Shown here in pieces: positions 9,219 through 33,712 of a stretch of 64,000 nucleotides of DNA. Source of the DNA: Dissulfuribacterales bacterium. GTDB taxonomy: Bacteria > Desulfobacterota > Dissulfuribacteria > Dissulfuribacterales > DYLC01. Every line of letters starts with the position of its first letter. Within the stretch, counting starts at the first letter, position 1. The notes beneath the pieces are model-generated. The model saw nothing but the letters and a program-made list of their open reading frames with translations, did no database searches and had not been told where the DNA came from. The position numbers and the translations under genes were made by a program. The stretch covers positions 72,353 to 136,352 of the forward strand of contig JBEULL010000004.1 of the NCBI GenBank assembly GCA_041287365.1, in the 5' to 3' direction.

Positions 9219-10274
9219 GTGTCGAATATTTTACCGAATCTCTGTATAACCATGGGCTGCCCTGCCGGCATTGGGCCTGAGATTCTCGTAAAATCCCTGA
9301 CCTACGGGGCTGGGTCCAAATATCTTGATCACCTCCTTGTGGTTGGAGATGCGGGTATTTTGGAGGCTGCCGCTGCATCACTTGGCCTGTCTCTTCGAAT
9401 ACAGTGCGTTGCGGAAGGGAGATGCGATCAAAGGGGCAACGGGGGCGTCGCGGTACTGCCTGTCACTCAGTTGAAAGCCGATGGCACTGCCGGTGATTTT
9501 TCTGCCGGCCGACCCAATGCTGTAACAGGCAGGGCGTCTTATTCCTATGTCAAAAAGGCCCTGGAACTCTGTGATACAGGCGGTTTTTCTGGCATAGTGA
9601 CCTGTCCCATCAGCAAGATCGGGCTTCGCCTGGCTGGCATAGATGCTCCAGGGCATACGGAAATTTTGGCTTGGCATACAGGAATCAAGAGATTTGCCAT
9701 GATGCTGGCAGGTAGCAGTCTGCGGGTGGTGTTGGTCACTATTCATTGCGCTTTGCGGAATGTGGCGTCGCAACTTTCACAAGAGAAGGTGCTGGAAACC
9801 ATCTCCCTGACACATGATGCACTACAGATGGATTTCGGCATAGATGCCCCCCGCATTGCGGTGGCCGGGCTCAATCCTCACGCCGGTGAGTCAGGGATGT
9901 TTGGGAATGAAGAGGAACGCATTCTGGCGCCGGCCATCATGGAGGCGGTCAGACAGGGCATTCATGCCCTCGGGCCCTATCCGCCTGACACCGTTTTTCA
10001 TCGGGCTGCTCACGGTGAGTTTCATGCGGTGGTCTGCCAGTATCACGACCAGGGACTTATTCCATTCAAATTGCTGCATTTCGAGGACGGAGTCAATGTC
10101 ACTCTGGGTCTGCCCATCGTGCGCACATCCGTTGATCATGGCACCGCTTACGATATAGCAGGAAAGGGTATCGCGAATGAGGCCAGCCTGAATGCCGCGA
10201 TAGAAATAGCGTTCACCATGGCGATCAATCGCCGTAAGCGTCGGGAGCAGGAGGTAATCTATGGGAGAGGTTAG
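9219..10274 (+). CDS. pdxA: 4-hydroxythreonine-4-phosphate dehydrogenase PdxA
   Basis: Blocks ITMGCPAGIGPEI, APGHTEILA, AVAGLNPHAGE and VRTSVDHGTAYDIAGKG. GTG start. Confidence 0.9.
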   Translation: MSNILPNLCITMGCPAGIGPEILVKSLTYGAGSKYLDHLLVVGDAGILEAAAASLGLSLRIQCVAEGRCDQRGNGGVAVLPVTQLKADGTAGDFSAGRPNAVTGRASYSYVKKALELCDTGGFSGIVTCPISKIGLRLAGIDAPGHTEILAWHTGIKRFAMMLAGSSLRVVLVTIHCALRNVASQLSQEKVLETISLTHDALQMDFGIDAPRIAVAGLNPHAGESGMFGNEEERILAPAIMEAVRQGIHALGPYPPDTVFHRAAHGEFHAVVCQYHDQGLIPFKLLHFEDGVNVTLGLPIVRTSVDHGTAYDIAGKGIANEASLNAAIEIAFTMAINRRKRREQEVIYGRG

Positions 10275-14001: not shown

Positions 14002-14895
14002 ATGGATGATAACGATAAAGTGACTCATGACGTGTCGGACGGTGTCCGTAGGATTGTAAAGGTGCAGATCAGGCCAGGCTGGCCGGCAGCATCCTACGAT
14101 GCGGGTGTTCTGGAGTTGAAGCGGAGTGACTGGGTGGTGGTATCAACGAACACAGGGGGCACAGGGGACACAGGCAGGGAGGTCGGTCAGGTGACGGTAG
14201 CGCCGGTTTCCGTTGCCCTGCCTTCCAGGATTTCGCTGCCTTTTGTGGAAGCTATGGCGAATGAAGCCGACATGGAACATTACAACGCCAACCTGGAGCT
14301 TGAAAAAAAGGCCTTCGCCTTCTGCTGCGAGCAGGTGGCCAGACTCAATCTTATAATGAAATTGACGCGTGTCCACAGCCTGTTCGATGGAACGAAGATC
14401 ATCTTCTATTACTATGCCGAACAGCGAGTGGATTTCAGGGAGCTGGTCAAGGAACTGGTGCGGGAACTTCGAATTCGAATTGAAATGCGCCAGATAGGCA
14501 TTCGACACCAGGCAAAGATGGTCGGGGGCATGGGTGAATGCGGACGCGAGTTCTGTTGTTCGAGTTATCTGAAGACCTTTGACCCCATCTCCATCAAAAT
14601 GGCCAAATCGCAGAATTTTCCTCTGAATCCCAGCAAGATATCAGGCAGATGCGGAAGACTGCTCTGCTGTCTGACATACGAATATGAGGCGTATTCCAAC
14701 AAAAACAGCGGTCGACAGGCGCATGACGACCAGACAGGAACTAAGCCGGACATGCAGGATGCGGAGGACTCGGCGATTTTGCAGTTACTGGAGGACAGGG
14801 AGGCGCCTGAATCCGTGGTTGTCCCTGATAAACAGGATGCAGCAGGCGGTCATGCCGGTGTAAAGCAAAGAAGAAAGAGGAATACCAGAACATGA
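14002..14895 (+). CDS. ricT: PSP1-domain protein RicT/YaaT family
   Basis: PSP1 C-terminal domain IEMRQIGIRHQAKMVGGMGECGREFCCSSYL...GRCGRLLCCLTYE. The conserved holB-yaaT-metG-type neighbourhood is present. Confidence 0.8.
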   Translation: MDDNDKVTHDVSDGVRRIVKVQIRPGWPAASYDAGVLELKRSDWVVVSTNTGGTGDTGREVGQVTVAPVSVALPSRISLPFVEAMANEADMEHYNANLELEKKAFAFCCEQVARLNLIMKLTRVHSLFDGTKIIFYYYAEQRVDFRELVKELVRELRIRIEMRQIGIRHQAKMVGGMGECGREFCCSSYLKTFDPISIKMAKSQNFPLNPSKISGRCGRLLCCLTYEYEAYSNKNSGRQAHDDQTGTKPDMQDAEDSAILQLLEDREAPESVVVPDKQDAAGGHAGVKQRRKRNTRT

Positions 14896-16862
14896 AGAAC
14901 GAAAAGGCGTTCTATGTCACCACGCCCATCTATTACGTGAATGCCCCACCTCATATAGGCCACGCTTACTCCACCATAGCCGCGGATGTGCAGCGCCGTT
15001 TTCATGCAATGCGAGGGGAAGAGACATTTTTTCTCACAGGCACGGATGAGCACGGAGACAAGATAGTCCAGGCAGCCCATGCCAAAGGCGTATCTCCCAA
15101 GGAATATGTGGACCGTATCAGTGCCATGTTTCGCGAGACCTGGCCCATGTTGGGCGTGGAGTACGACCGTTTTATTCGTACCACAGACTCCGAGCATGTG
15201 GCCACCGTGCAGAGGATACTCTCACAGGTATATGAGAAAGGCGAGATAGTCTTTCGTGAGTACGAAGGCCTCTATTGCTTCGGCTGTGAGCGTTTTTACA
15301 TGGAGCGGGAACTGAAAGACGGCAAGTGCCCAGATCACGGCACGGAGCCGGTGCGGCTCAAGGAGCAGAACTATTTTTTCCTCATGAGCCGTTATCAGGA
15401 TTGGCTCATAGACCATATTCGTGCCAATGTTGATTTCATCACTCCCGAGAGGTACCGAAACGAGGTCTTGTCCTTTTTGAAGGAACCGCTGGATGACCTC
15501 TGTATCTCGAGACCCACCACACGTCTTACCTGGGGCATTCCCCTGCCTTTCGATGAAAAATTCGTCACCTACGTCTGGTTTGATGCCCTCATCAATTATC
15601 TTACAGGAATAGGCTATCCTTCCCATGCGAATTTTGAATGCCTTTGGGCTGGTGCAGAGCACGTAATCGCCAAGGACATTCTGAAGCCTCATGCCATCTA
15701 CTGGCCTACCATGCTCAGAGCCATCGGTCTTCAGCCCTACAAAAGGCTGCATGTACACGGCTATTGGCAGATCAAGGAGCAGAAGATGTCCAAGAGCCTG
15801 GGAAATGTGATAACCCCTGCGGAACTCCTGGAAAAATTCGGTGCAGAGGCTGTGCGCTATTGTCTGATGCGAGAGATGGCCTTCGGCCTGGATGCTTCTT
15901 ACAGCGAAGACGCATTTCGCACTCGCATAAATGCAGACCTGGCCAATGACCTGGGCAACCTGGTGAGTCGTACTTTATCCATGCAGGAAAAATACTTCAA
16001 AGGGATCATTCCCACGCCTGAATCCCTTGATTCCGAGCTACAAAAGGCATGTATGGCCATGATTCCCCTCTGGGAAATGGACATGGAAGAGTTTCAGGCT
16101 CACAAGGCCCTGCAAAGGGTGTGGGAGGTCATCGGCCTGGCCAATCGAGTCATAGACCATTCTGCCCCCTGGAATCTGGCAAAGGATGCCACCAGGCAGG
16201 GCGAGCTCAAAAATCTCATGTATTCTCTGCTGGAGACCCTGCGCATCGTCTCCATACTCATTTGGCCTGTTATGCCTCAGGCTGCCCAGCGCATACAGAG
16301 CGCCATCGGTCTTGCGGATAAACAGGCGTTCAGTTTGAATCTGGCTAGGGAATGGGGTCTTTTGTGCCCGAGTACAGGATGTATTCGCATACCATCACTT
16401 TTCCCGCGATTGGAGACAACAGGAGCGGACTGCAAGACGACTACTCCAAAAGAGACTGCATCAATGTCGGTCAATCCACCGGCAGAAACACAAAACACAA
16501 GGAAAATGCAAGAGATGGACACCGAAAACAAGGAAAACCTCATCACGATCGACGAATTCAGGCGGGTGGACCTGCGGGTCGCTGAGATTCTGAACGCCGA
16601 GCGCATACCCAAGGCGGACAGGCTTCTTAAGTTGACAGTCTCGTGTCCGGAAGAGCGCACCATCGTGGCGGGCATTGCGGAGCACTTCACGCCGGAGGAA
16701 CTCATCGGCAGGAAGATCGTCGTGGTTGCCAATCTTCAGCCCACCAAACTGCGCGGCATCACATCCGAAGGCATGCTGCTTGCCGCCAAGGACGAAAACG
16801 GCAGGCTGTCTCTGGCCACTGTTTCTGATTCCACCATGGCACCAGGTGCTCGTATAGGCTGA
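14892..16862 (+). CDS. metG: Methionine--tRNA ligase with C-terminal tRNA-binding (Trbp111/EMAP-like) domain
   Basis: HIGH region PPHIGHAYS, KMSKS present, and C-terminal VDLRVAEILNAERIPKADRLLKLTV. Confidence 0.95.
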   Translation: MKNEKAFYVTTPIYYVNAPPHIGHAYSTIAADVQRRFHAMRGEETFFLTGTDEHGDKIVQAAHAKGVSPKEYVDRISAMFRETWPMLGVEYDRFIRTTDSEHVATVQRILSQVYEKGEIVFREYEGLYCFGCERFYMERELKDGKCPDHGTEPVRLKEQNYFFLMSRYQDWLIDHIRANVDFITPERYRNEVLSFLKEPLDDLCISRPTTRLTWGIPLPFDEKFVTYVWFDALINYLTGIGYPSHANFECLWAGAEHVIAKDILKPHAIYWPTMLRAIGLQPYKRLHVHGYWQIKEQKMSKSLGNVITPAELLEKFGAEAVRYCLMREMAFGLDASYSEDAFRTRINADLANDLGNLVSRTLSMQEKYFKGIIPTPESLDSELQKACMAMIPLWEMDMEEFQAHKALQRVWEVIGLANRVIDHSAPWNLAKDATRQGELKNLMYSLLETLRIVSILIWPVMPQAAQRIQSAIGLADKQAFSLNLAREWGLLCPSTGCIRIPSLFPRLETTGADCKTTTPKETASMSVNPPAETQNTRKMQEMDTENKENLITIDEFRRVDLRVAEILNAERIPKADRLLKLTVSCPEERTIVAGIAEHFTPEELIGRKIVVVANLQPTKLRGITSEGMLLAAKDENGRLSLATVSDSTMAPGARIG

Positions 16863-16863
16863 T

Positions 16864-18777
16864 ATGACCGCAAAGACAGTCGTCCTCGGTACGGCCGGTC
16901 ACATAGATCACGGCAAGACCTCCCTTATACGGGCCCTCACCGGTATAGATACAGACCGTTTGAAGGAGGAAAAGAGCCGCGGCATCACCATAGAGCTGGG
17001 GTTTGCACACCTGGATCTGCCTTCAGGTCAGCGCATCGGCATAGTGGATGTCCCTGGCCATGAGCGGTTCGTTAAACATATGGTGGCCGGTGCCACCGGC
17101 ATGGATATGGTGTTGCTGGTGATAGCCGCGGATGAAGGCATCATGCCTCAGACCAGTGAGCACATGGCTATTTGTGAGCTGCTGAGTGTGAAAAAAGGCC
17201 TTATCGCCCTCACCAAAAAGGATATGGTAGAACCCGACTGGCTTGAGTTGGTGAGAGAAGACATAGCCCTGGCTATGCAGGGCACCTTTCTGGAAGGGGC
17301 GGAGATCATACCCGTATCCTCCGTGACAAGAGATGGGCTCGATGACTTGAAGGCCGCCATTCAGAGAGTAGTGAATGACCTGCCTGTTTCCATGACCTCA
17401 GGCCCCTATCGTCTTCCTATCGATCGTATTTTCACCATAAAAGGTTTTGGTACCGTGGTGACCGGCACCACTGTTTCCGGACACATTCGTGTGGGAGATG
17501 ATGCCATGATCTATCCCAAATGTATTCCGACCCGCATTCGGGGTATTCAGAATCACGGTCAGGAGGCTCAGGAGGCGGTGCCTGGTCTGCGCACGGCCAT
17601 AAACCTTCAGGGAGTGCAGGTGGAGCAGATAGAGAGAGGGGATGTCTTGTCTGTACCAGGCGGCTTGAGGCCGAGCCTGCTGTTGGATATTCAGCTTTAT
17701 TACCTTGCATCAGCGGAACGTCCCTTGAAACACAGGGCGCCTGTGAAATTTCATACGGGGACAGGGGAGATCATTGGGCGAATGTTGTTGCAGCAAGACG
17801 AATTGGCCCCGGGTGAACGCACTTATGCCCAGATCAAGCTGGAAAGACCGGTGGCCGTGTTGCCGGGTGACCGCTATATCATTCGCAGTTATTCTCCTGT
17901 CATTACCATCGGCGGCGGTGCTATTCTGAACCCTCTGCCCAGACGCCGTAAGCGTTCCAGGCCGGAGATGTGGAATGAAATGGCTGTATTGGACAGGGGT
18001 TCCGCCGGAGAACGCATTATTTATCATCTGAAACAGGCGGATCAGAGGGGATTGTCTCTCTCTGAGCTTTCCCTGCGTACGGCCCTCTATGGCAAGACCT
18101 TGGAAAGGGAACTGGAACGAATCCTTGGCCAGGGTCAGGCCCTCAAGTTGGATTCGGAAGGTCAGCGCATATTGAGCGCAGAGGTCTATGAGAAAAAACG
18201 CAGGCAGGCCTTGGAATTGTTGCGGCAGTATCATGCGGAATTTCCTCTGTCTCCGGGAATCTCCAAGGAAGAGCTGCGTTCCAGACTTTTCCCCATTCTG
18301 GAAGACAATCATTTCTTTCAACGTCTGCTTGCCAATCTGGTCAAAACCAACGAGTTGGTTCAGGATAAAGATTTGATAAGATTGGCTAACCACCAGTTGA
18401 ATATGCAGAAGAAAGACAAAGACATACAGTTGTTTATCGCGGACATATATCTCAAGGCCGGCATGACGCCTCCTTCCAAAACAGAGTTGTTTTCCATGTT
18501 CAATGACAAGGCACTGGTTTCCAGCCTCTTGAATCTTTTGGTGCGAGAAGGGGTGCTCGTTTATCTCAAGGACGACCTCTATCTGCACTCGGCTATCCTG
18601 GAACAGATCAGGTCCTTGGTGATAAATTTTCTGAAGCAACACGGTGAGATGGGCATAAATGATTTTCGTGACCTGACAGGCGGGCTTTCTCGCAAATATA
18701 TGGTGCCGATTCTGGAATATCTGGACAATCAGAAGCTCACCATGCGCATAGGTGACAAGCGAAGACTGCGTGGCTGA
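16864..18777 (+). CDS. selB: Selenocysteine-specific translation elongation factor SelB
   Basis: Blocks [36 protein letters not shown] and DVPGHERF, plus a long C-terminal winged-helix extension. 637 aa. Confidence 0.9.
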
Positions 18778-18779
18778 AA

Positions 18780-20342
18780 GTGGCATTTCATGTCAGTTAT
18801 GAACTGGTTCCGGGAAGGGCATCTAGCGGCAAGGTGCTGAATGATATTCTCGCCTTTGCAAAAGAGGCGGCCCGCGACGGCCGGATAGCGGCGCTTTCCA
18901 TCACCGACAATGCCGGCGGTAATCCGGCGCTTTCCCCCAAGTCCCTTGGAAGAGACATTCAGCATCTGGGCATTGAGCCTGTAATTCATTTTTCCTGTAA
19001 GGACAAGAATCGGAATCTCATAGAGAGCGAACTCTTCGAGCTGGACCGTCTGGGCATGAGACACCTTCTGGTGGTGACAGGAGATTATCCCAGATACGGT
19101 TTTCAGGGCAATGCCAAGCCGGTCTTTGACCTGGATTCGGTGCTTGCGCTGCGAATGATTCAGGATATGAACAAGGGATTTCTGCTGGACAGCCGGGCGC
19201 CGGGCGGAGGCATTCAAATGCCTCCCACTTCGTTTCATGCCGGTTGCGTCGTATCCCCTTTCAAACGTCTTGCCAGTGAACTGGTGCCGCAGTACCAAAA
19301 GCTCGTCAAAAAACTGGCCTCAGGGGCCAAATTCGTCATCTCCCAGGCCGGTTATGACATGCGTAAATATCACGAATTGCGTCTGGTCATGGACATGTTC
19401 CTGGGCAAGGTCCATATTGCCGGTCAATCACCTCTGCTTAAAAGCACATGTGACAATACTCACCCGCCATTTTTCAAGGATATTCCTCTGTTCGGAACGG
19501 TCTTCATTCCAGGAATAAAGATGGCGAGACTGCTGTACAAAGGGGTTGTGCCCGGCTGTATTCTGCCCAAAAGGCTTTTGGAGCGCATGGAGGACGAGGC
19601 GCACAGCCCTGATGCGGGCCTTGAAGCCAGGCTCGAACGTGCGGCCAAAATGGTCGCCATGCTCAAGGGGATGGGGTACGACGGAGTACACCTGAGCGGG
19701 CCTGGACTGCGATATGAACACATTGTCCATGTCTTGAATCTGGCTGAAACATGGAATGGGCGTTGGCATGGCCTGATCCCCGAGTTTCTCTTTCCTGAGG
19801 AGTGGAATGCCTGGTTGTTCGAGCAGGATGCCGGCACCGGCCTCAACTTGCCGGAATTTCGAAAGGGGGTTGAAACAGTGTCTCTCTCTATCGCCAGCAG
19901 ATTTTCTATGGGCGCAAGTATGGCTGTGCATAACCTATTTTTTGAGAGAAACGCCCCTTTTTATGAGGCCATGAAGGCCGCAGTCCTGTTGTTAGAGAGG
20001 GCGTCCCTTGGAAATATGTTGACAAATTTCGAATATTGTCTAAAGGGTATGCTGTATGATTGCCAATCCTGCGGGGATTGCACACTGGGAGAGATGGCCT
20101 TTTTGTGCCCTCAGTCCCAGTGTGCCAAAGGGTTGCTGAATGGCCCTTGCGGAGGGAGTCAGAACGGCTGGTGTGAGGTCTGGCCAGGCCGCAAGCGCTG
20201 TGTGTATGTGAGACGTTATGAACGAATGCAGTATTTTCGTCTCAGGGCAAAGGATATTGTTTTGCCTCCCAGAGACTGGTCGCTTTACAAGACTTCTTCG
20301 TGGCTGAACTTTTTTATGCGAAGAGATCATACAAGATATTAA
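18780..20342 (+). CDS. Methylenetetrahydrofolate reductase fused to a Cys-rich MTHFR C-terminal (MetV-like) domain
   Basis: The N-terminal ~300 aa are MetF-like (SYELVPGR..., LSITDNAGG, LLVVTGDYP). The C-terminus carries CQSCGDCTLGEMAFLCPQSQCAKGLLNGPCGGSQNGWCEV. GTG start lies 3 nt after the selB stop. Confidence 0.75.
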   Translation: MAFHVSYELVPGRASSGKVLNDILAFAKEAARDGRIAALSITDNAGGNPALSPKSLGRDIQHLGIEPVIHFSCKDKNRNLIESELFELDRLGMRHLLVVTGDYPRYGFQGNAKPVFDLDSVLALRMIQDMNKGFLLDSRAPGGGIQMPPTSFHAGCVVSPFKRLASELVPQYQKLVKKLASGAKFVISQAGYDMRKYHELRLVMDMFLGKVHIAGQSPLLKSTCDNTHPPFFKDIPLFGTVFIPGIKMARLLYKGVVPGCILPKRLLERMEDEAHSPDAGLEARLERAAKMVAMLKGMGYDGVHLSGPGLRYEHIVHVLNLAETWNGRWHGLIPEFLFPEEWNAWLFEQDAGTGLNLPEFRKGVETVSLSIASRFSMGASMAVHNLFFERNAPFYEAMKAAVLLLERASLGNMLTNFEYCLKGMLYDCQSCGDCTLGEMAFLCPQSQCAKGLLNGPCGGSQNGWCEVWPGRKRCVYVRRYERMQYFRLRAKDIVLPPRDWSLYKTSSWLNFFMRRDHTRY

Positions 20343-24162: not shown

Positions 24163-24325
24163 CCTGAGTGGATTTTAATCGTAGAGTTAAAAATAAAGGG
24201 AGATTTCCATGTTGGAGGGCCTCCCTGCAGTTATTTCCTATACAGGAGGATTTCAAAGGCGCGACATATCATTCATAACGAAAACCGGTAGTCATCAATC
24301 AGCATTCACCCTCTTTTTATTACGC

Positions 24326-24340
24326 TGGTGCAGTACTCGC
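24326..24340 (+). promoter_or_regulatory. Weak sigma-54-type -24/-12 candidate upstream of the RRM-hyp gene string
   Basis: TGGTGCAGTACTCGC has GG and GC with the canonical 10-nt spacing. The flanking positions fit TGGCAC-N5-TTGC only partly. It lies ~55 nt upstream of ATG 24395. Confidence 0.25.
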
Positions 24341-24394
24341 GGCAGGAACGCAAAAAAGAGCCCTTTTTTCTCTAACTATTTTCGGGACAAAACA

Positions 24395-24757
24395 ATGAAC
24401 ATATATGTAGGCAACATACCAAGAAACACACAGGAACAGGACCTTATGCAGGCATTTTCCGCCTTTGGGCAAGTTTCCACCGTCAACATCATCAAGGACA
24501 AATTCACTGGTGAGGGCAGGGGGTTCGGTTTTGTGGAGATGCCGGATACTACTGCGGCGCAGGCGGCCATTGCAGCATTGAATGGCAAGGATTTCATGGG
24601 CAGGCCGCTCACAGTAAACGAGGCAAAACCACGCACCGATGACCGCAGAGGCGGAGGTGGACGTGGAGGCTACGGTGGAGGTAACAGAGAAGGTGGTAGG
24701 GGAGGCGGCAGGGGCCGTGGTGGTTCCGGCGGTGGCGGGGGACGCCGCTCCTGGTAA
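24395..24757 (+). CDS. RRM-type RNA-binding protein with Gly/Arg-rich (RGG) tail
   Basis: RNP2 NIYVGNI and RNP1 RGFGFVEM, with C-terminal RRGGGGRGGYGGGNREGGRGGGRGRGGSGGGGGRR. The internal ATG 24395 is chosen; the upstream 62 codons of the ORF track show no homology features. Confidence 0.85.
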   Translation: MNIYVGNIPRNTQEQDLMQAFSAFGQVSTVNIIKDKFTGEGRGFGFVEMPDTTAAQAAIAALNGKDFMGRPLTVNEAKPRTDDRRGGGGRGGYGGGNREGGRGGGRGRGGSGGGGGRRSW

Positions 24758-24769
24758 CAGAGGTCTGTC

Positions 24770-25033
24770 ATGTGTCTTGCAGTGCCCATGCGGGTCAAAA
24801 AACTTCTTGACGCGACAGGGGCTGAGTGCGGTCGGACGGATGATCCACCCGTGGCTGCGGTTGTGGAAGCGAACGGCGTGGAGCGTAGTGTCCGCCTGGA
24901 TATTGTTGACATCATTCCCGGACAGGGCGATTATGTCATCGTCCACGCTGGCTTTGCCATTCGTACCCTGCCGCCCGAGGATGCCCTGAAGGATCTGGAG
25001 CTTATTCGTCAGGCGCTGGAGCGCTCTCCATGA
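24770..25033 (+). CDS. hypC: Hydrogenase assembly chaperone HypC/HupF
   Basis: N-terminal MCLAVPMRV signature. 87 aa. Confidence 0.9.
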   Translation: MCLAVPMRVKKLLDATGAECGRTDDPPVAAVVEANGVERSVRLDIVDIIPGQGDYVIVHAGFAIRTLPPEDALKDLELIRQALERSP

Positions 25034-26166
25034 ACGATTCAAGTTCCTTTGAGGCAGATTACAGAAAACCTGCATTGATCTCATTCTTGAGGCAGCGCCT
25101 TGTCTCTGTTTTCGATGCTGACAGGGGCAGAGAGGTCTTCTGTATGGAGGTCTGCGGCACACACACCGTAAGTATCTTCAGACATGGAATACGTTCCATG
25201 CTGCCTTTAGGTCTGCATCTCATATCAGGGCCGGGCTGTCCGGTATGTGTCACCACTCAGCGGGATATCGACGCCTTTATATGGTTGAGCCATCAGGATT
25301 GCATCGTCACTACATTTGGAGACTTGATGCGTGTTCCAGGTACCGAAAGCAGTCTTCAGGAAGCCAGGGCTACGGGCGCTCGCGTGCTGCCGGTCTATTC
25401 CCCAATGGATGTCATCTCTGTGGCAAAAGAGCACTCGAATCTTCTTGTTGTCTTTTTGGCCGTAGGTTTTGAAACCACCATTCCGGGCATAGCGAGTATG
25501 CTTTATGAGGCGAAGCGCCTGAATCTCTCCAATCTGGCCATATATTCGGCCATGAAGCTCATGCCGCCGGTATTGACTGCCATCTTCAGCGATCCAGACT
25601 GTGGAATACAAGGCCTCATCTGCCCTGGGCATGTGAGCGCCATCATAGGCGCAAAGGCATATGCCCCCTTTGTGGAGCGCTATGGTGTGCCATGTGTCAT
25701 TACTGGGTTTGAGCCGGTGGATATCATGCGAGGCCTTTGTCAGTTGAGCGAGATGATCCTAAATGGACAGTCAGGGATTTATAACGCATATGAACGAGTG
25801 GTGAGTTGGAATGGCAATCAGCGGGCCCTGGACATGATGCATCGGGTCTTTATGCCGAAGGACGCCCAATGGCGTGGGCTTGGCACCATTCCTCAGAGCG
25901 GGCTTGGGTTACGGCCTGAGTATGTGGATTTCGATGTAAGTAATCACATACAATTGCCTGAAACACTGAAAATGGGGCAAGATGAACGGTTACCACAAGG
26001 ATTCCTCAAAAAAAATCATGGTTGTAAATGCGGTGAGATCATCAAAGGCAAGGCATCTCCCCTCTCATGTCCTTTATTTGGCAAGGCTTGTACTCCGTCC
26101 AGACCTTTTGGTCCGTGTATGGTCTCCACAGAAGGCACATGCGCCGCATTTTTCAAATACGGATAA
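25030..26166 (+). CDS. hypD: Hydrogenase expression/formation protein HypD
   Basis: Blocks MEVCGTHT, SGPGCPVCVT, GFETT and C-terminal FGPCMVSTEGTCAAFFKYG. Confidence 0.95.
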   Translation: MNDSSSFEADYRKPALISFLRQRLVSVFDADRGREVFCMEVCGTHTVSIFRHGIRSMLPLGLHLISGPGCPVCVTTQRDIDAFIWLSHQDCIVTTFGDLMRVPGTESSLQEARATGARVLPVYSPMDVISVAKEHSNLLVVFLAVGFETTIPGIASMLYEAKRLNLSNLAIYSAMKLMPPVLTAIFSDPDCGIQGLICPGHVSAIIGAKAYAPFVERYGVPCVITGFEPVDIMRGLCQLSEMILNGQSGIYNAYERVVSWNGNQRALDMMHRVFMPKDAQWRGLGTIPQSGLGLRPEYVDFDVSNHIQLPETLKMGQDERLPQGFLKKNHGCKCGEIIKGKASPLSCPLFGKACTPSRPFGPCMVSTEGTCAAFFKYG

Positions 26167-26245
26167 AAGATATCGTTATGGAAACATCTAAGAAAATAAG
26201 AATCTTCAGGCCGTCGCAGGTGTGTTTGTGGAGGGGTGGGCCTCT

Positions 26246-27253
26246 ATGCGATATATAACCTTGGATCATGGAAGCGGTGGTCTGGCCAGTCAAGAATTGC
26301 TTGCCGACCATCTGCTTCCGTTTTTGAAGAATTCGATGCTGAATGAGCTGGAAGACAGCGCAGTTATTCAGATCGGGGATACAAAGATCGCTTTCACTAC
26401 CGATAGTTATGTGGTGGATCCCATATTTTTCCCGGGTGGAGATATCGCCAAATTGGCTGTAAACGGCACTCTGAACGATCTGGCCATGAAGGCCGCAAAC
26501 CCACTCTATCTGAGTTTGGGGTTGATTCTTGAGGAGGGTTTCCCTCTCAACGAATTGGAACAGGTAGTTTCCTCCCTTGCCAAAGCGGCCCAAGATGCAG
26601 GTGTTACGGTGGTGACAGGCGATACTAAAGTGGTGCCTCACGGCAAGGGTGACCGAATATTCATCAACACATCAGGAATCGGAATCATCGACTGTGCCCC
26701 CATTCCTTCTTATCGCAGAATCCAGCCTGGTGATTGCATTCTGGTATCAGGTACAGTAGGGGACCACGGCATTACCATCCTGACCAGCCGCAAGGGCTTG
26801 CATCTGGAAACCCCCATACTCAGCGATACCATGCCCCTTCACGGGTTGGTAGCCGCTTTGCTGGACAAGGTGGGGGCATGTCTGCACTGCATGCGTGACC
26901 CTACCAGAGGTGGACTTGCTACCACGCTTACGGAATTGGCCTCCAGAAGCGGCTGGAGCTTTGAGGTGGATGAGCAGGCCATTCCCATCACCCATGCTGT
27001 GGCCTCTGCATGTGAGATATTGGGGTTTGATCCACTATATCTGGCCAATGAGGGCAAGTGCGTGATCTTTGTTTCTTCTGAATGCGCTCAAGAAGCGTTG
27101 CGGTTTATACGCAGCCGCAGCGAGGGTTGTGATGCCGCAATTATCGGAAGGGTGCTTTCCGATAAAAACGGCAGGGTTGTACTTAACACTGCAATTGGGG
27201 GGAAAAGGCTGTTGAGACCCCTTGCAGGTGAGCCGCTTCCGAGAATATGCTGA
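26246..27253 (+). CDS. hypE: Hydrogenase maturation carbamoyl dehydratase HypE
   Basis: N-terminal ITLDHGSGG, AIR-synthase-like fold blocks, and C-terminal GEPLPRIC. Start set at ATG 26246; the ORF track starts at GTG 26222. Confidence 0.9.
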   Translation: MRYITLDHGSGGLASQELLADHLLPFLKNSMLNELEDSAVIQIGDTKIAFTTDSYVVDPIFFPGGDIAKLAVNGTLNDLAMKAANPLYLSLGLILEEGFPLNELEQVVSSLAKAAQDAGVTVVTGDTKVVPHGKGDRIFINTSGIGIIDCAPIPSYRRIQPGDCILVSGTVGDHGITILTSRKGLHLETPILSDTMPLHGLVAALLDKVGACLHCMRDPTRGGLATTLTELASRSGWSFEVDEQAIPITHAVASACEILGFDPLYLANEGKCVIFVSSECAQEALRFIRSRSEGCDAAIIGRVLSDKNGRVVLNTAIGGKRLLRPLAGEPLPRIC

Positions 27254-27837
27254 AGAAAATCAATATATTAGGTCTTGGCAATCTGTTGATGTCCGATGAA
27301 GGTTTCGGTGTGCACTGCATACGATGCATAGAGGAGCACTATGATTTTTCTTCGGCTGTCCTGAATGGCTTCGAGATACAGGTGGTGGATGCGGGCACAG
27401 GCGGCATGGTGCTCGGTCCTTATCTGGAGGATGTGGACCGTGTGATTCTGATAGACGTGATCTCGACGGCGCCGGAGCCCTCTCCTTCCACCTCGGTTTT
27501 ATTTCAGGATCAAGACACGGGCCAGGCACTCTATCACTTCGCCGGTTCCGACGCCTTTCGCAGGCACTCCCTTCAATCCGCCCTGTCTCCGCATCAGGTA
27601 GGCATATTGGAGGTGTTTGAGCTCTCCATGCTTCGGGGCAATGCAGCGAGGTACATGGATTTTTTCTGTGCGGTAGCCATTGATTTGAGTCTTGGAGTCC
27701 AGCTTTCGTTCGGGCTTCAGGCGCTTTTGCCTCAAATGGTTTCGCAGATTATCTCCTTTTTGCAGGGTTTTGGTGTGCCCGTTGTTCATGTAAAAAAACA
27801 CAGCAGTCCCAAGGTATTTTCCGGCCTCCATGCATGA
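27247..27837 (+). CDS. Hydrogenase maturation endopeptidase (HyaD/HybD family)
   Basis: N-terminal ILGLGNLLMSDEGFGVHCI and ILIDVI blocks. It overlaps the hypE stop. Confidence 0.8.
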   Translation: MLKKINILGLGNLLMSDEGFGVHCIRCIEEHYDFSSAVLNGFEIQVVDAGTGGMVLGPYLEDVDRVILIDVISTAPEPSPSTSVLFQDQDTGQALYHFAGSDAFRRHSLQSALSPHQVGILEVFELSMLRGNAARYMDFFCAVAIDLSLGVQLSFGLQALLPQMVSQIISFLQGFGVPVVHVKKHSSPKVFSGLHA

Positions 27838-28225
27838 ATTTTCCATAGCTCAAGGGTTGGTCGCTCAATTGAAGGAGCTTTTGGCCCTGCATCAAAGGCG
27901 CACCGTCACATCCATCAGGCTGTCCATAGGGTTGTTTTCCGGCGTAGTGACCGAATCCCTTCTCTTTTCCCTTAAGATGCTGGCTGAACAGGAACCTGCA
28001 CTTAAGGAAATGAAAGTGGAGGTGCAGTCTCCGGCCGTCGAGTGTACATGCAGCCAGTGCGGCCATCGCTTTAATGTGGACGCCCAGTTTTTGATGAGTT
28101 ATTCGAATACGTCCGCTGCGGGCATATTTTCAAGTCTTGCCACGTACTGTCCTGTGTGCGGCAGTGAATTCTGCACGCACCGAGGCGGGGATGAACTGCT
28201 GTTGCTCACAGTGGAAATGACATAG
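27830..28225 (+). CDS. hypA: Hydrogenase nickel incorporation protein HypA
   Basis: N-terminal MHEFSIAQ and a zinc site CSQCG...CPVCG. Confidence 0.85.
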   Translation: MHEFSIAQGLVAQLKELLALHQRRTVTSIRLSIGLFSGVVTESLLFSLKMLAEQEPALKEMKVEVQSPAVECTCSQCGHRFNVDAQFLMSYSNTSAAGIFSSLATYCPVCGSEFCTHRGGDELLLLTVEMT

Positions 28226-28602: not shown

Positions 28603-29595
28603 ATGCTTCGAAAATTGATTGTAGTCGCTGCCTGTGCAGGCCTGATCATGGGCTGCACTCAGGCCGTTGAAAAGCGGGCTAACATCGTAAAGCCGCCGGA
28701 GATCGATCCATGCGCCAAGTATGTGGGAAATGACACCTGTATGGGTTGTCATGAAGAAATCTCCAAGGAACGGCACAATGTGCATTTGCGTATCGCATCC
28801 TTTGAGGCGCCAGGTGCCAAGGCCATTGGCTGTGAGGGCTGTCACGGACCAGGCTCTCTTCATGTGGATGGCGGAGGAGACAAGACCAAGATTTTGCGTT
28901 TTGGTGAAGAAGGTCTGAATGATGAGGAAGTGGCGGCTGTGTGTACCACCTGCCACAGCTCCAAGGAACATTTGAACTGGGCTGGCTCCGCCCATGCGGA
29001 AAATGATGTCACCTGCACCACCTGTCACAAGGTGCATAAAAACGACAATAAGGCCCTGCTTTTCAAGGGTCAAAACGAGCTCTGCGGCACATGTCATCAA
29101 GATGTCATGGCTCAGACCTATTTTGCATCCCATCATCCCATTAAAGAGGGCAAGATGGGCTGCACAGACTGTCACAACCCCCATGGCGGAAATAACTTCG
29201 GCAAGGCCATGCTCAAGACCGATGAGCGTGTCAACGACCTCTGTCTCAAGTGCCATACCCGTTATCAAGGGCCGTTTGTTTTTGAACACGATCCTGTTGT
29301 GGAAGACTGCATGATCTGTCACGACCCTCACGGTACGGTAGCCAACAACCTGCTGCGCCAGCAGGAGCCATTTCTGTGTCTGCAGTGTCATGAGGCACAC
29401 TTTCATGCAGCCCGTGCATCCAACAGCAAATTCGCTGTAACGGCACCAGGGGATGCCTCCAGCACCATAGGTGCTACGGAATATGGATTCCAGAAGTCCT
29501 TTATGACTAAATGCACACAATGTCACCCCTATGTGCATGGTTCGGATCTGCCTTCGCAGTCTGTAGCCGGCCAGGGTCAGGCATTGACAAGATAG
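28603..29595 (+). CDS. Decaheme c-type cytochrome, MtrA/DmsE/PioA family, probable lipoprotein
   Basis: Ten CxxCH motifs counted by hand (CMGCH, CEGCH, CTTCH x2, CGTCH, CTDCH, CLKCH, CMICH, CLQCH, CTQCH). Terminal CTQCHPYVHGS. The signal peptide has LIMGC. Strong RBS GAGGAGG. Confidence 0.9.
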   Translation: MLRKLIVVAACAGLIMGCTQAVEKRANIVKPPEIDPCAKYVGNDTCMGCHEEISKERHNVHLRIASFEAPGAKAIGCEGCHGPGSLHVDGGGDKTKILRFGEEGLNDEEVAAVCTTCHSSKEHLNWAGSAHAENDVTCTTCHKVHKNDNKALLFKGQNELCGTCHQDVMAQTYFASHHPIKEGKMGCTDCHNPHGGNNFGKAMLKTDERVNDLCLKCHTRYQGPFVFEHDPVVEDCMICHDPHGTVANNLLRQQEPFLCLQCHEAHFHAARASNSKFAVTAPGDASSTIGATEYGFQKSFMTKCTQCHPYVHGSDLPSQSVAGQGQALTR

Positions 29596-29608: not shown

Positions 29609-31555
29609 ATGAAAAAACGATATCTAACTGTATTGGTTGGTCTTTGTCTTGCCGTGCCTTTTGCTACGCCATGTCTGGCAGCAGATTCCTCAGACAAGCC
29701 CCTGCAGGGCGAGATATCCATCGGAGGCAAGTGGCAGCTGGATGACCTGGATAAACATGAAGGCAAGGCCAAGGGTGGTGCGGAATTCGATAGCACCGCT
29801 GACAAAAATCTGTCGTGGGATACCGGCGCCAAACTGGATTACAGGAGCCCGTCCATAAATTTCGACGTGGATGGTCGCTATAAGGACGGTGATGACCAGA
29901 CCTACGGCGGTAATCTGGATTTGGGTCGTATCATGCTTTACAAGACCAATTACGACCGGTTCATGCACCGCCTGGGCCATGATTATCTGGACAATCTTAC
30001 TGCGCAGATCTTTCGGGCTGCAGGTACTCCTGGTGCACCGGTAGGTCTGCCGTTCCCATGTCCTGATCCCAACAACCCTGCCTTCTGTCAGGCCCTGCCC
30101 GATACAGACCCAAATACCGCTGGCTATCAGAACTCCAGAAGCACCATCGGCGCTGCGGCTGTGTATCACACGGATCACGACCCGTTTGCAGACTATCACA
30201 CTACGCACACCACCTGGGAGAACAGCTTAACCTTCAATGTGCCGCAGTTGCCTGGTCTGCAGGTGGGCTTTGATCACAGACAGGAAAAGCGTAAGGGTTG
30301 TGCGCAGGCCTTGACCACCAGCAAGTGCTCGGCCTGTCACATCGAGTCCTACAGCAAGGGTATAAACGAAGAGACCAATGATTATATGCCAAAGGTGTCG
30401 TTGAAGCTGGAGGCCCTTGCCCTGGAGTACTCCTTCCTGCACAGGGAGTTCAACGACAAGAGCCAGGAGATGATAAACGGCTACAATACATTGACAGCGG
30501 CCCACATAGCCCCGTTCGCTTCAAGTCTGCAGTTCCCAACATACAGTGGGACCACTTTGAATGCGGGTTCGGAGATTTTGCCATTCAGCCGTACGCCGGA
30601 CTCCACCAAGGACAGCCATACCCTGAAGGGTCGCTATGACATCGATGCCAACAACACCGTGATAGCCGGGATAGTCTATTCCAAGAGCACCAATACTCAG
30701 ACAGACGGCGCTTACAGCCCACTTTACGGCGAGTTCGGCAAGGACCTGGAGCTGGACAGCACAGCTATGATGGCCAAGTGGCACAGTCGTCTGTCTTCTA
30801 CTGTGAGTCTGAACCTGTTTGGCAAGTATCAGACCATGAATAATGACAATGTCGGCATAGATATAAACGATGCCGCCTTGCACAACAAGTATAAAAACGA
30901 GCCGGGAGATCTGTGGGACTTCACTCGTCAGTCCGCCTATGACATGGATATCCTCACTATGGGGGCTGACATGTCCTGGAAGTTGGTCAAGGGCATAACC
31001 TTAAAGGGAGGCTATGAGTATAAGAGGGATAATCGCAAGAACGCCGATCTTCTGAATGTGCCGGAGACCACGGATGAGCATACCATAAAGTTGGGCGGTG
31101 ACTGGCGTATCAATCGCACTATGAAGTGGGCATTGGGTTACAAAGGTCAGTTCGTGAGCCATCCCTATGCCTATAAAAACGCCGTGTGTACTCCGTGGGG
31201 CAGTTTCGGTCAGTATGCAGGGCCTGCCTCTGATGGTGCGGATTACTATAGAAGCTATGGACCAACCATCTATGACGCCCGCACAGGCACTCGTTCCAAC
31301 CTGCCCAATCAGGCCCATGAGTTCAGCCTGAAAGGGAACTTTATGCCCATGAAGACCCTGTCCGCCAATCTGTATGGAAAGTACAGAACTGCCAAAAACG
31401 ACGATGTTAGCGGCAACGACTGGCAGCAGGACCTCTTCACCGGCGGCCTGAATCTGGTGCTTACGCCGTTTGAAAAGCTCGTATTCACTGCTGGTTATAA
31501 CTATTTCTATGATACATATGACTCGATGTATTGTATCGCCCTCTATGATGGGTGA
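29609..31555 (+). CDS. MtrB/PioB-family outer-membrane beta-barrel protein, N-terminal 648-codon segment ending at an in-frame TGA
   Basis: Signal peptide ending CLA-AD. Long alternating Tyr/Gly/Asp-rich strand pattern. It sits directly downstream of the decaheme gene, as in mtrAB/pioAB. The segment lacks a C-terminal aromatic residue. Confidence 0.8.
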   Translation: MKKRYLTVLVGLCLAVPFATPCLAADSSDKPLQGEISIGGKWQLDDLDKHEGKAKGGAEFDSTADKNLSWDTGAKLDYRSPSINFDVDGRYKDGDDQTYGGNLDLGRIMLYKTNYDRFMHRLGHDYLDNLTAQIFRAAGTPGAPVGLPFPCPDPNNPAFCQALPDTDPNTAGYQNSRSTIGAAAVYHTDHDPFADYHTTHTTWENSLTFNVPQLPGLQVGFDHRQEKRKGCAQALTTSKCSACHIESYSKGINEETNDYMPKVSLKLEALALEYSFLHREFNDKSQEMINGYNTLTAAHIAPFASSLQFPTYSGTTLNAGSEILPFSRTPDSTKDSHTLKGRYDIDANNTVIAGIVYSKSTNTQTDGAYSPLYGEFGKDLELDSTAMMAKWHSRLSSTVSLNLFGKYQTMNNDNVGIDINDAALHNKYKNEPGDLWDFTRQSAYDMDILTMGADMSWKLVKGITLKGGYEYKRDNRKNADLLNVPETTDEHTIKLGGDWRINRTMKWALGYKGQFVSHPYAYKNAVCTPWGSFGQYAGPASDGADYYRSYGPTIYDARTGTRSNLPNQAHEFSLKGNFMPMKTLSANLYGKYRTAKNDDVSGNDWQQDLFTGGLNLVLTPFEKLVFTAGYNYFYDTYDSMYCIALYDG

Positions 31556-31606
31556 GCTAACTTCATCACAACGAACCAGTTTGGTTCGGCACACACTAAG
31601 ATGGAG
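31556..31606 (+). promoter_or_regulatory. SECIS-like extended hairpin immediately 3' of the in-frame TGA
   Basis: Upper stem CGAACCA (31572-31578) pairs with TGGTTCG (31582-31588) around loop GTT. Lower stem CTTCATC (31561-31567) pairs with GATGGAG (31600-31606), with one G-U pair. There are 23 nt between the TGA and the apical loop. Confidence 0.35.
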
Positions 31607-32014
31607 TATGAGACCGAGGCTCACACCTTTATGCTGGGCGCAAGCCTGAAGCCCATGGCAAAGCTGTCCTTCAATCTCACTGGCAGCTATACCAAGGGCA
31701 CTGGTAACATCTCCGAGTTGAGCTTCGCTCACATGGAGACCAGCGACGTGAAGCTTTCTTACAACGTGAGCGCACTCAATCCTAATCAGATCTATCTCTA
31801 TGATACCGCATACATAAACGGCATTTCAGCCTATTCCAATGCGGATTTCAAAGAGATGGACTTGACTTTGGGCGTGGCCTACAGGCTCACCAAACAGATG
31901 GGTATCGGCTTGAACTACTATTATACGGATTATCAGGACGATGCACCTTATGTTTACAGGGATGAGAGTAATACACTTCAGTCGCTGGTGGGTTATCTGA
32001 CCTACAGCTTCTAA
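31601..32014 (+). CDS. C-terminal segment of the same MtrB/PioB-like barrel, in frame with 29609-31555 (not an independent gene)
   Basis: Same reading frame. No stop codon between 31556 and 32011. No signal peptide. It ends ...LVGYLTYSF, the typical OMP C-terminal Phe. The combined length is 801 codons. Confidence 0.7.
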   Translation: MEYETEAHTFMLGASLKPMAKLSFNLTGSYTKGTGNISELSFAHMETSDVKLSYNVSALNPNQIYLYDTAYINGISAYSNADFKEMDLTLGVAYRLTKQMGIGLNYYYTDYQDDAPYVYRDESNTLQSLVGYLTYSF

Positions 32015-32048: not shown

Positions 32049-32081
32049 GGGGGCGCATGCACTGTGCCCCCAATTTTATTT
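32049..32081 (+). terminator. Intrinsic terminator after the porin gene
   Basis: GGGGGCGCA (32049-32057) pairs with TGTGCCCCC (32063-32071) around a 5-nt loop, followed by AATTTTATTT. Confidence 0.7.
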
Positions 32082-32173: not shown

Positions 32174-32211
32174 TATAGAACTGCCCAGTGATCTGGTAGC
32201 ACAATTGTCAG
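32174..32211 (+). repeat. 38-bp direct repeat, copy 1
   Basis: TATAGAACTGCCCAGTGATCTGGTAGCACAATTGTCAG is identical to copy 2. Confidence 0.95.
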
Positions 32212-32248
32212 CTTTTATTTTGTGATTGAGGGGCTATAATTCATAAAA

Positions 32249-32286
32249 TATAGAACTGCCCAGTGATCTGGTAGCACAATTGTCAG
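32249..32286 (+). repeat. 38-bp direct repeat, copy 2
   Basis: Identical 38-mer, 75 bp downstream of copy 1 (start to start). Confidence 0.95.
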
Positions 32287-32317
32287 GCTTTTAAGCTAAC
32301 ATTTTTAGATGGTTATG

Positions 32318-32363
32318 AACACAGCCCGGTCATGTTTCCCTTTATATATGACCGGGCTGTGTT
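32318..32363 (+). other. Perfect 16-bp inverted repeat (hairpin) with a 14-nt loop
   Basis: AACACAGCCCGGTCAT (32318-32333) pairs with ATGACCGGGCTGTGTT (32348-32363), followed by GTTTAT. It lies inside the 5' end of the ORF-track ORF 32309-33712. Confidence 0.85.
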
Positions 32364-32374
32364 GTTTATGGTGT

Positions 32375-33712
32375 ATGATGCCACGTAGGTTGTGTCTTAT
32401 TGTGTTGTGTGTGTTGTTGCAGTCTTGTTTTTCTTCGATTGTATTTGCCAATACCTCCGTCACACTGAATTTTGATGCCTCGGCAAGGGTTTTGCGGCCT
32501 GGGAATAACTTTACCCTGGCCTTACACGTCTCAAATGCTGTAGTTACTCAGGCGGACCTATACCTGGCAGTTTCGACGAAAGCAAGTGGTCTAATTTTTT
32601 TGTCAAAGGACCTGCATTCATCAAGTTCGACTCCGGTCATATTTCAATCCGTGAAGAATCTGCAACCAAATGAAGTATTGCTGCTTCTTTCTGGAGTGCT
32701 GCCATCAGAGGCAGTGCCGGACGAATACACGTTTTTTGCGGTTTTGACTAAAAAAGGGGCCTTGCCGTTAAATGATACAAGTTGGGTCAGCAATCTGGCC
32801 GTGCAACAAATCGTTCTGACTTATCTGCCACTCACGCCTTATGAGTTGGTGGATGAGCCGTACCTGTTTCCTGTTCGGCTCCCTGATAAGGATGCCATGG
32901 GTTATCTGCCTTTGAATCGTTGGGATATCATGTTCATGGGCGAGGTTTTGGACGACCCTTCTACGCCTCAAAACGAGGCATTGATCAGCCAGATCATACC
33001 CGGGCTCTTCAATCACATAGCTGTCTATCTCGGAAGGGATAAGGATGGTCAGGCCTACGGCATGGAGATGAGTCCGGATTTTACGCATAGAAGTCATGAA
33101 CTGCGCCTGATTCGTCTTCCTGAATACTATGAGCTGGCGGTGCCTGTGGAAGAAGATACAGGCGAGCCCGTGCAGAATAAAAATCTTGTGCGATATACCG
33201 CCAGATGGGCCAAGCGATTTGCAGCAGAACCATTGGCCCAAATAACGGCAGCGGAGGAGCGGCTTTTTGCCCAAATACAGGCAAATATGGAAGTGAATCT
33301 GCCGTATCAGATGGAGTATTACTGGTCAGGCAGTCTTTTTGACAGGGCCATATATATCGTGGACGACGGCCTGAAAAACGGCGCTAACTGCACGGATTAC
33401 TGGCTGTCCGTGTTTGAGGAGATAGCTGGTATCTGTTTCAATGGAGTGCGTATGAACGCTCAAGAGGCCAAGGTATATTTTCAGACTGATCCTGTGGAAT
33501 CCAATGTCTATATACCGGATTTTCTCAATCCATTTCCGACACCACTAAAGATATCGGATCTGTTTTCACTGGGTTTTTACCTGGTGGAACCGCCACCTCA
33601 TGTATTTGTATGTGATGGTAGTGAGGAGGTTGGCTTGCCTCTTCCCGATAAGGTCTTTGCCTCACATCTGCTGGTGGATATCCCCATACCATTTTGCGCT
33701 ATAAGGCTTTGA
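32375..33712 (+). CDS. Secreted hypothetical protein, possible permuted NlpC/P60 (YiiX-like) domain in the C-terminal half
   Basis: The start is preferred at ATG 32375, which gives a classical signal peptide MMPRRLCLIVLCVLLQSCFSSIVFA-N. The His-then-Cys order (FNHIAVYLG ... ANCTDYWLSVFEE) recalls permuted papain-like amidases. The domain call is weak. Confidence 0.55.
   Translation: MMPRRLCLIVLCVLLQSCFSSIVFANTSVTLNFDASARVLRPGNNFTLALHVSNAVVTQADLYLAVSTKASGLIFLSKDLHSSSSTPVIFQSVKNLQPNEVLLLLSGVLPSEAVPDEYTFFAVLTKKGALPLNDTSWVSNLAVQQIVLTYLPLTPYELVDEPYLFPVRLPDKDAMGYLPLNRWDIMFMGEVLDDPSTPQNEALISQIIPGLFNHIAVYLGRDKDGQAYGMEMSPDFTHRSHELRLIRLPEYYELAVPVEEDTGEPVQNKNLVRYTARWAKRFAAEPLAQITAAEERLFAQIQANMEVNLPYQMEYYWSGSLFDRAIYIVDDGLKNGANCTDYWLSVFEEIAGICFNGVRMNAQEAKVYFQTDPVESNVYIPDFLNPFPTPLKISDLFSLGFYLVEPPPHVFVCDGSEEVGLPLPDKVFASHLLVDIPIPFCAIRL

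Follow-up and report, generated by a model that had tools for sequence, protein, structure and literature searches.

The TGA at positions 31553–31555 of a 64,000-nt stretch from a Dissulfuribacterales bacterium (contig JBEULL010000004.1 of assembly GCA_041287365.1, positions 72,353 to 136,352; hereafter the window, whose own numbering is used throughout) is very probably a programmed selenocysteine (Sec) codon inside the gene for an MtrB/PioB-type outer-membrane porin. The initial annotation of the window had proposed a Sec site and a Sec insertion sequence (SECIS) in such a porin, and this central idea is supported by the alternation of TGA and Cys codons among homologs, by covariation in the hairpin downstream and by the coding evolution of the sequence after the TGA. 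The annotation was mistaken in calling the site unprecedented, since the NCBIfam model NF041027 already describes a selenoprotein family of this kind and the family is listed as a predicted selenoprotein in Table 1 of Zhang et al. 2026, Appl Environ Microbiol (PMC13188914). The features on which the argument draws are the following.

29609 to 32014, plus strand: complete predicted porin selenoprotein gene, consisting of 648 codons, UGA (Sec649), 152 codons and TAA, assigned through NF041027, Pfam MtrB_PioB and the top Foldseek match, MtrB (6r2q_B).
29609 to 29680, plus strand: predicted signal peptide (MKKRYLTVLVGLCLAVPFATPCLA / ADSS), read from the translation, with a putative cleavage site.
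30326 to 30340, plus strand: CSACH, residues 240–244, the single c-haem attachment motif of the porin, between predicted strands 7 and 8.
31532 to 31534, plus strand: Cys642, seven residues before Sec and invariant in the close family, a candidate selenenylsulfide partner.
31553 to 31555, plus strand: UGA, predicted to encode selenocysteine 649, in the motif ..YDG-U-AN.., with TGA in 32/32 aligned sequences and 31/39 further loci.
31556 to 32011, plus strand: C-terminal 152 codons, predicted by AlphaFold2 (AF2) to form the rest of loop 11 and the last five barrel strands, with the terminus ..LTYSF.
31572 to 31588, plus strand: predicted SECIS core, a 7-bp stem CGAACCA/UGGUUCG with the apical loop GUU (31579–31581), supported by covariation and by the constraints of the bacterial SECIS (bSECIS) model.
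16864 to 18777, plus strand: selB, gene for the Sec-specific elongation factor, which matches TIGR00475 with 355 bits (cut-off 242).

The coordinates were re-derived from the sequence. The open reading frame (ORF) 29609–31555 encodes 648 residues and is terminated by the TGA, which is the sole interruption between it and the codons downstream in the same frame (..SMYCIALYDG-TGA-ANFITTNQFGSAHTKMEYE...). After the TGA the frame stays open for 152 further codons to the TAA at 32012–32014, and the predicted terminus is of the outer-membrane protein (OMP) type, as the initial annotation had stated. Decoding the TGA thus gives 801 sense positions (648 + Sec + 152). A downstream ATG is present at 31601, separated from the TGA by 15 codons, and the translation of the C-terminal part has no signal peptide. 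At the other end of the protein, the AF2 model has a helix at residues 2–19 and its first strand from residue 32.

The porin assignment was confirmed by Pfam MtrB_PioB (PF11854; 53.5 bits against a cut-off of 23). A much stronger match was found with NF041027, 'GSU2204 family CXXCH-containing (seleno)protein' (model GSU2204_Se_pt_1), which scores 498.2 bits against a cut-off of 350 and aligns residues 16–648 with model positions 5–580 of 580, so that the end of the model coincides with the residue before the UGA. All traits of this family are present in the window: a single CXXCH, a UGA or Cys followed by an in-frame C-terminal part, and an adjacent decahaem cytochrome of the GSU2203 family. 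By these matches the porin is a member of an already curated selenoprotein family, from which it does not differ at the level of membership, and the family itself is not new. Beyond the paper of Zhang et al., we found in the full-text literature no paper that treats the GSU2204 family as a selenoprotein and no experimental study; elsewhere in the searched literature GSU2203 (omcK) and GSU2204 occur only in Geobacter expression and mutation tables. Neither the model nor that listing contains the covariation of the SECIS, the forms with Cys, the number of strands or the assignment of the loops given here. The same table (PMC13188914) lists the multihaem cytochrome ExtKL (NF040886) beside the GSU2204 family. 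ExtKL, the other selenoprotein catalogued from gene clusters for extracellular electron transfer, is likewise a predicted selenoprotein of a Geobacter-type outer-membrane conduit, but carries its Sec in a soluble multihaem cytochrome rather than in the porin.

Used as a protein query, the read-through product found 29 homologs, all of which end once about 81% of the query is covered. In the first two loci retrieved, the following gene call is in frame with the homolog, and the sequence across the junction is ..YCIAVYDG*[AG]NLIT... We assembled a set of 32 sequences from the window, these two loci and 29 loci from a scan of one genome per species, the scan pattern of which ended at the residue before the TGA. 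A TGA is present at the aligned position in all 32 sequences (35–93% identity), and in all 32 it is followed by an in-frame continuation of 143–156 codons ending in ..[YF]xF. A second scan, of metagenome contigs, relied on alignment of the N-terminal part and on patterns distant from the Sec site (KCSACH.. and SFLHREF..). Both scans together give a TGA at the aligned site in 63 independently assembled homologs with 23–93% identity.

The sequence downstream of the TGA behaves as coding sequence throughout. The identity of the C-terminal part to each homolog tracks that of the N-terminal part, and against the two relatives with more than 90% identity (L003 and L004) the differences at codon positions 1/2/3 number 11/3/41 and 10/0/47, with just 9 and 4 amino-acid changes. 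The same third-position excess is seen over all pairs in the first 25 codons 3′ of the TGA. Therefore, judged by its substitution pattern, the 3′ part of the porin evolves as translated sequence, including the stretch ahead of the first ATG, and the 152 codons after the TGA are by the same measure under purifying selection. Searching the 152-residue C-terminal part against 1.84 billion representative proteins with HMMER returned 31 relatives, 29 of which are orphan ORFs of 75–163 residues that start just past the recoding site; the position of the first downstream ATG varies among the homologs. A junction-spanning protein query of a word-indexed database gave only two matches and no full-length form.

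In eight distant relatives the position is occupied by Cys. Among the 39 informative loci of the metagenome scan (23–93% identity), 31 have TGA at the aligned position and the other eight (L050, L051, L053, L062, L064, L066, L068 and L073) have TGT or TGC, in the motif ..[LMI]EG-C-GG... A conserved position that alternates between TGA and Cys is the hallmark by which selenoproteins are usually recognised in comparisons. Of the features that Kryukov and Gladyshev look for, Cys homologs at the UGA position and conservation on both flanks were found here, and of the Sec machinery (selA, selB, selC and selD) the window contains selB. In a superfamily alignment of 40 sequences, U or C occupies column 649 in 39; P0050, a full-length relative, has Gly at the site and retains both the decahaem neighbour and the CXXCH. 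The surroundings of the site differ between the two forms. A Cys is found at −7 in 29/33 Sec forms, the Sec forms L058, L060 and L070 have a Cys at +4 instead, L055 and L063 have neither, and all Cys forms have Ala at −7. This distribution suggests that in most Sec forms the Sec and its neighbouring Cys may make up a selenenylsulfide couple.

The hairpin reported in the initial annotation was recovered by folding an 81-nt segment, with its upper stem at 31572–78 and 31582–88 and its apical loop starting 23 nt after the UGA. The fold of the single sequence is only moderately unusual (z = −2.46; 4/200 shuffles fold as well). The alignment lifts the upper stem far above chance: over 31 distinct sequences, aligned without gaps, 90.3% of cells in this stem are paired, 4/7 pairs have changes on both sides, no sequence departs from the loop G (column 27), and conservation of the U after it is at least 90%. 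The same upper helix is obtained with RNAalifold. Compensation is visible at the level of codons, with Asn/Asp (AAC/GAC) to Ser (AGC) going together with a change of the pairing Gly codon from GGT to GGC, and with Gln (CAG) accompanied by Tyr TAT and Arg (CGG) by Tyr TAC; some of the compensatory changes use synonymous sites. Across both scans, the stem reaches 5 bp or more in 54/54 unique TGA forms, with a median of 7 and with loops that begin at position 26–27 (U of UGA = 1), while the stems themselves are highly diverse (CGAACCA, CGGACCG, GAGCCA, CCTCCC, TTCGAGCC, GTCGGCCC, GGCTCC and GTCGACCCA). The eight non-TGA forms (seven Cys, one Gly) have at most 4 bp at the hairpin position, a difference in stem length with a Mann–Whitney p of about 1e-6 over sequences that are not phylogenetically independent. 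TGA and Cys forms are distinguished by a position-specific stem measure and by a local fold. The minimum free energy (MFE) of the whole 60-nt segment does not separate them, because the Cys forms are G+C-rich. The co-variation that the initial annotation had named as a check was therefore found, and the hairpin follows the TGA only, not the Cys codons.

The E. coli fdhF SECIS is the prototype of the bacterial element. Compared with the consensus of Zhang and Gladyshev and with fdhF, the window hairpin likewise lies within the coding sequence just 3′ of the UGA, and it shares the 3-nt G–U loop, the 7-bp upper stem and the 23-nt spacing; it differs in having no primary-sequence similarity to the E. 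coli elements and no evident conserved bulged U. The bSECIS model (summarised in PMC13188914, section 5) sets four constraints: a loop of 3–9 nt on an upper stem of 4–16 bp, a G as the first or second loop nucleotide, mostly with G or U behind it, a distance of 16–37 nt from UGA to apical loop, and an MFE of −7.5 kcal/mol or lower. The window hairpin falls within all four, with a loop of 3 nt, a stem of 7 bp, a spacing of 23 nt and G first; its MFE is −9.0 kcal/mol when the local 32-nt segment is folded and −15.7 kcal/mol for 66 nt. By its covariation and geometry, the upper hairpin is a SECIS, at which SelB binding and Sec insertion are predicted. Of the two-tier structure originally described, only this upper tier is conserved, and the remaining feature of the hairpin region is:

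31560 to 31607, plus strand: lower stem of the initial annotation, 31560–31567 pairing with 31600–31607, lineage-specific.

In the alignment, 69% of its cells are paired and 1/8 pairs has a change on both sides. It folds only in the window, in L003, L004, L033 and L034 and partly in L028, and is probably lineage-specific rather than part of the functional element.

The identification of SelB in the initial annotation stands, with TIGR00475 joined by the Pfam domains GTP_EFTU, Beta-barrel_SelB, SelB-wing_2 and SelB-wing_3. In the region 14892–20342 (plus strand), selB lies between metG and a gene for a 520-residue MTHFR-like protein with a DUF5981 C-terminal domain. ARAGORN found no tRNA in the window, and no selA, selD or tRNA-Sec was found beside selB. 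An ORF at 26222–27253 with AIRS domains was considered as SelD and rejected, as it is HypE. Among the 22 assigned genes of the window, TGA is the commonest ordinary stop (10/22) and the porin TGA is the only internal one; therefore, on this usage, the organism has no general reassignment of UGA. On the minus strand, from 6500 to 4260, another pair of ORFs split by a TGA proved to be two adjacent genes in one frame and not a selenoprotein: a 162-residue ORF without a family match is followed by the TGA, two codons and then a 581-residue protein with its own ATG, in which a YcaO domain is fused to TPR repeats. The remaining TGA-split candidates in the window are antisense to, or out of frame with, assigned genes.

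To place the Sec residue in the porin, we folded the N- and C-terminal parts with AF2 as two separate fragments. The N-terminal model has 21 long strands and a mean predicted local distance difference test score (pLDDT) of 64.8, with the barrel strands mostly above 85, and the C-terminal model has five strands and a pLDDT of 71.6. Summed over the separately modelled halves, the predicted strands number 26, which equals the count in MtrB (Edwards et al. 2020, PMC7198977). In Foldseek, the top PDB match of the N-terminal model is MtrB, 6r2q_B (E = 9e-13). The CSACH motif lies between strands 217–237 and 245–267, and C240, C243 and H244 are invariant in 40/40 family members. Connections after even-numbered strands are tight turns of 2–6 residues and those after odd-numbered strands are mostly long. 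In barrels of this type the short turns usually point into the periplasm, as do the two termini. Therefore CSACH (loop 4, strands 7–8) and Cys642/Sec649 (loop 11, strands 21–22) are both predicted to be extracellular.

The porin gene is the second of a two-gene module, of which the other features are:

28603 to 29595, plus strand: decahaem c-type cytochrome of the GSU2203 family (MtrA/DmsE-like), first gene of the module (NF041028).
32049 to 32081, plus strand: terminator-like hairpin and T-run closing the two-gene operon, with a 9-bp stem containing seven G–C pairs and then AATTTTATTT.

The cytochrome scores 458 bits against NF041028, 'GSU2203 family decaheme c-type cytochrome' (cut-off 325), and also matches TIGR03508, the DmsE family. 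Its translation contains ten CXXCH motifs and a lipoprotein-type signal (..LIMGC), and 13 nt separate its gene from the porin start. At homolog loci with sufficient flank, the decahaem gene is found 9–19 nt upstream of the porin. An L-x-G-C lipobox is present in the GSU2203-family decahaem at essentially all loci (L001–L073), unlike in soluble MtrA, which suggests that the cytochrome is a membrane-anchored partner of the porin. At the homolog loci inspected, the neighbours downstream of the porin are not conserved, and neither there nor in the window did we find an MtrC-like surface cytochrome gene with the module. The module therefore resembles MtrAB/MtrCAB of Shewanella (PDB 6R2Q) in pairing a predicted 26-strand barrel with a decahaem cytochrome of the MtrA/DmsE kind, but departs from it in several respects. 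MtrB has neither a haem-binding motif nor Sec, whereas the window porin bears a CXXCH and a predicted Sec; MtrA is not a lipoprotein, whereas the window decahaem has a lipobox; and MtrCAB includes MtrC, for which the module has no counterpart gene. The structure-aligned sequence identity between MtrB and the window porin is about 13%.

These elements can be combined into a mechanism. SelB carrying Sec-tRNA(Sec) would bind the 7-bp hairpin with its GUU loop, the stem of which starts 16 nt downstream of the UGA, and the ribosome would insert Sec649 and continue to the TAA at 32012. The product would be a single precursor of 801 residues, about 777 after cleavage of the signal peptide, and would form a 26-strand outer-membrane barrel of the MtrB/PioB kind with its own c-haem motif, probably co-transcribed with the decahaem lipoprotein. 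In MtrCAB, MtrA is covered by the surface loops of the porin, and its last haem alone is left accessible to MtrC (PMC7198977). On this analogy we propose that the porin haem and Sec would together form the last redox site, facing outward, of a conduit made of two proteins, in place of an MtrC-type surface cytochrome. A more far-reaching version, in which the Sec/Cys pair and the haem at the barrel mouth would form a surface-exposed, selenium-dependent catalytic site supplied by the embedded decahaem and make the porin itself a terminal oxidoreductase, is tentative and rather unlikely to be right. We know of neither a catalytic outer-membrane porin bearing haem and Sec nor a natural Sec-ligated haem that has been demonstrated. 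It is speculative that the substrate would be insoluble sulfur or polysulfide, an idea raised because the named homolog sources include sulfur-metabolising lineages. These sources include Dissulfurirhabdus, Dissulfuribacter, Dissulfurimicrobium, Desulfobulbaceae and Thermodesulfatator; many appear to be sulfur-metabolising lineages of the Desulfobulbia type, which is no more than a lead.

Several other explanations of the TGA have to be weighed. Taken by itself, a lone in-frame stop in one sequence looks like a recent nonsense mutation, which would leave a pseudogene from which only a truncated 648-residue fragment, or nothing, is made. The same TGA is nevertheless present in 63 homologs from many independent assemblies, down to about 24% identity, the 152 codons downstream are under apparent purifying selection, and the co-varying hairpin stands behind the TGA but not behind Cys codons. 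In addition, an outer-membrane barrel that lacks its last five strands and the C-terminal OMP signature is not expected to assemble. All that speaks for a sequencing or assembly error is that a single codon is concerned, but the identical feature recurs in genome and metagenome assemblies from different projects, and the NCBIfam model was built to end at the TGA. The initial annotation had kept both alternatives; conservation across assemblies and selection on the 3′ part exclude them, and the chance of either is negligible. Recoding that does not depend on Sec deserves more attention. RNA structures 3′ of stop codons can stimulate read-through, and the Sec evidence here is comparative, so near-cognate decoding, for example as Trp or Cys, might produce the same full-length protein. 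The site alternates specifically between TGA and Cys, though, and the hairpin has SelB-type geometry, with G–U at the start of the loop and 23 nt from the UGA, in a window that contains selB. The ATG at 31601 could alternatively allow two polypeptides to form one barrel, but the 15 codons between the TGA and this ATG show conservation at the protein level, with changes mostly at third positions, homologs have their first ATG at differing positions, and the C-terminal part has no signal peptide. We consider Sec-independent recoding and the two-polypeptide arrangement, taken together, highly unlikely.

A different question concerns the role of Sec649 if it is inserted, as it could occupy the distal axial position at the porin's c-haem, giving a natural His/Sec haem, and not be a separate redox residue. 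U/C649 and the CXXCH are both near-invariant and are predicted on the same face, and His/Cys-ligated c-haems occur in sulfur enzymes, being known in SoxAX, TsdA and DsrJ. We had considered Sec/Cys649 as the sole conserved candidate for the distal ligand, and rejected this because three His residues are conserved on a par with U/C649 in the 40-sequence superfamily alignment (H120 in 40/40, H124 in 38/40 and H337 in 37/40). In the AF2 model, H120 and H124 are at the outer end of strand 5, with two to three strands between them and the CXXCH loop, as against about 12 for loop 11; therefore a bis-His porin haem is at least as likely as a Sec-ligated one. Furthermore, P0050, the sole full-length form with neither Sec nor Cys at the site, keeps its CXXCH. 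Ligation of the haem by Sec is thus improbable, and a Sec that is itself a redox-active residue is the reading we prefer.

Several points weigh against a selenium-containing, haem-bearing porin with an outward redox site. The support for selenium incorporation, for the full-length product and for haem attachment is all comparative or predicted. The genes selA, selC and selD were not found in the 64-kb window, and the hairpin corresponds to no Rfam family in a gathering-threshold search of the whole window; a permissive Rfam search of 31530–31640 gave chance matches only (E above 1). The AF2 models (mean pLDDT 65 and 72) have low confidence in just those loops that bear the CXXCH and the Sec. 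About 12 strands of the barrel rim lie between loops 4 and 11, so the haem and Sec may well be distant from each other. Finally, we know of no precedent for an extracellular, covalently haem-loaded loop in a barrel protein. The recoding and the family membership are shown by the comparative evidence described above; the topology and the redox role are inferred.

Outside the module, the window contains a number of other features. The cytochrome–porin operon is immediately preceded by a hydrogenase-maturation cluster (hypD, hypE, the gene for a HycI-like protease, and hypA), and an ORF for an RRM-type 'RNA-binding regulator' (NF058537) is located upstream of this cluster (24209–28225, plus strand); the ORFs examined in the window included none recognised as a structural gene of a hydrogenase. 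Downstream, between the porin terminator and the ORF 32309–33712, an exact 38-nt direct repeat, TATAGAACTGCCCAGTGATCTGGTAGCACAATTGTCAG, occurs at 32174–32211 and 32249–32286, 75 nt apart. It extends to 43 nt at 95% and is found nowhere else in the window, and the region 32174–32286 has no unusual RNA fold (z = +0.36). The repeat could be a duplicated operator or promoter element of the downstream gene. That gene (32309–33712, plus strand) encodes 467 residues with a hydrophobic N-terminus and has no Pfam or NCBIfam match, and it is not kept beside the porin in the few homolog loci for which downstream genes were inspected. A further ORF at 10261–11946 (plus strand) encodes a 561-residue protein with four PEGA domains and a formylglycine-generating-enzyme (FGE-sulfatase) domain.

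In summary, our data suggest that a stop-codon recoding event recognised from raw sequence alone was a true positive. As 29 of the 31 relatives of the C-terminal part are orphan fragments, gene callers split the GSU2204-type porin almost everywhere, and the annotation of these conduits is therefore systematically wrong. If Sec649 is inserted as predicted, selenium would be part of an outer-membrane, probably surface-exposed component of an extracellular electron-transfer conduit, which is an unusual place for it.

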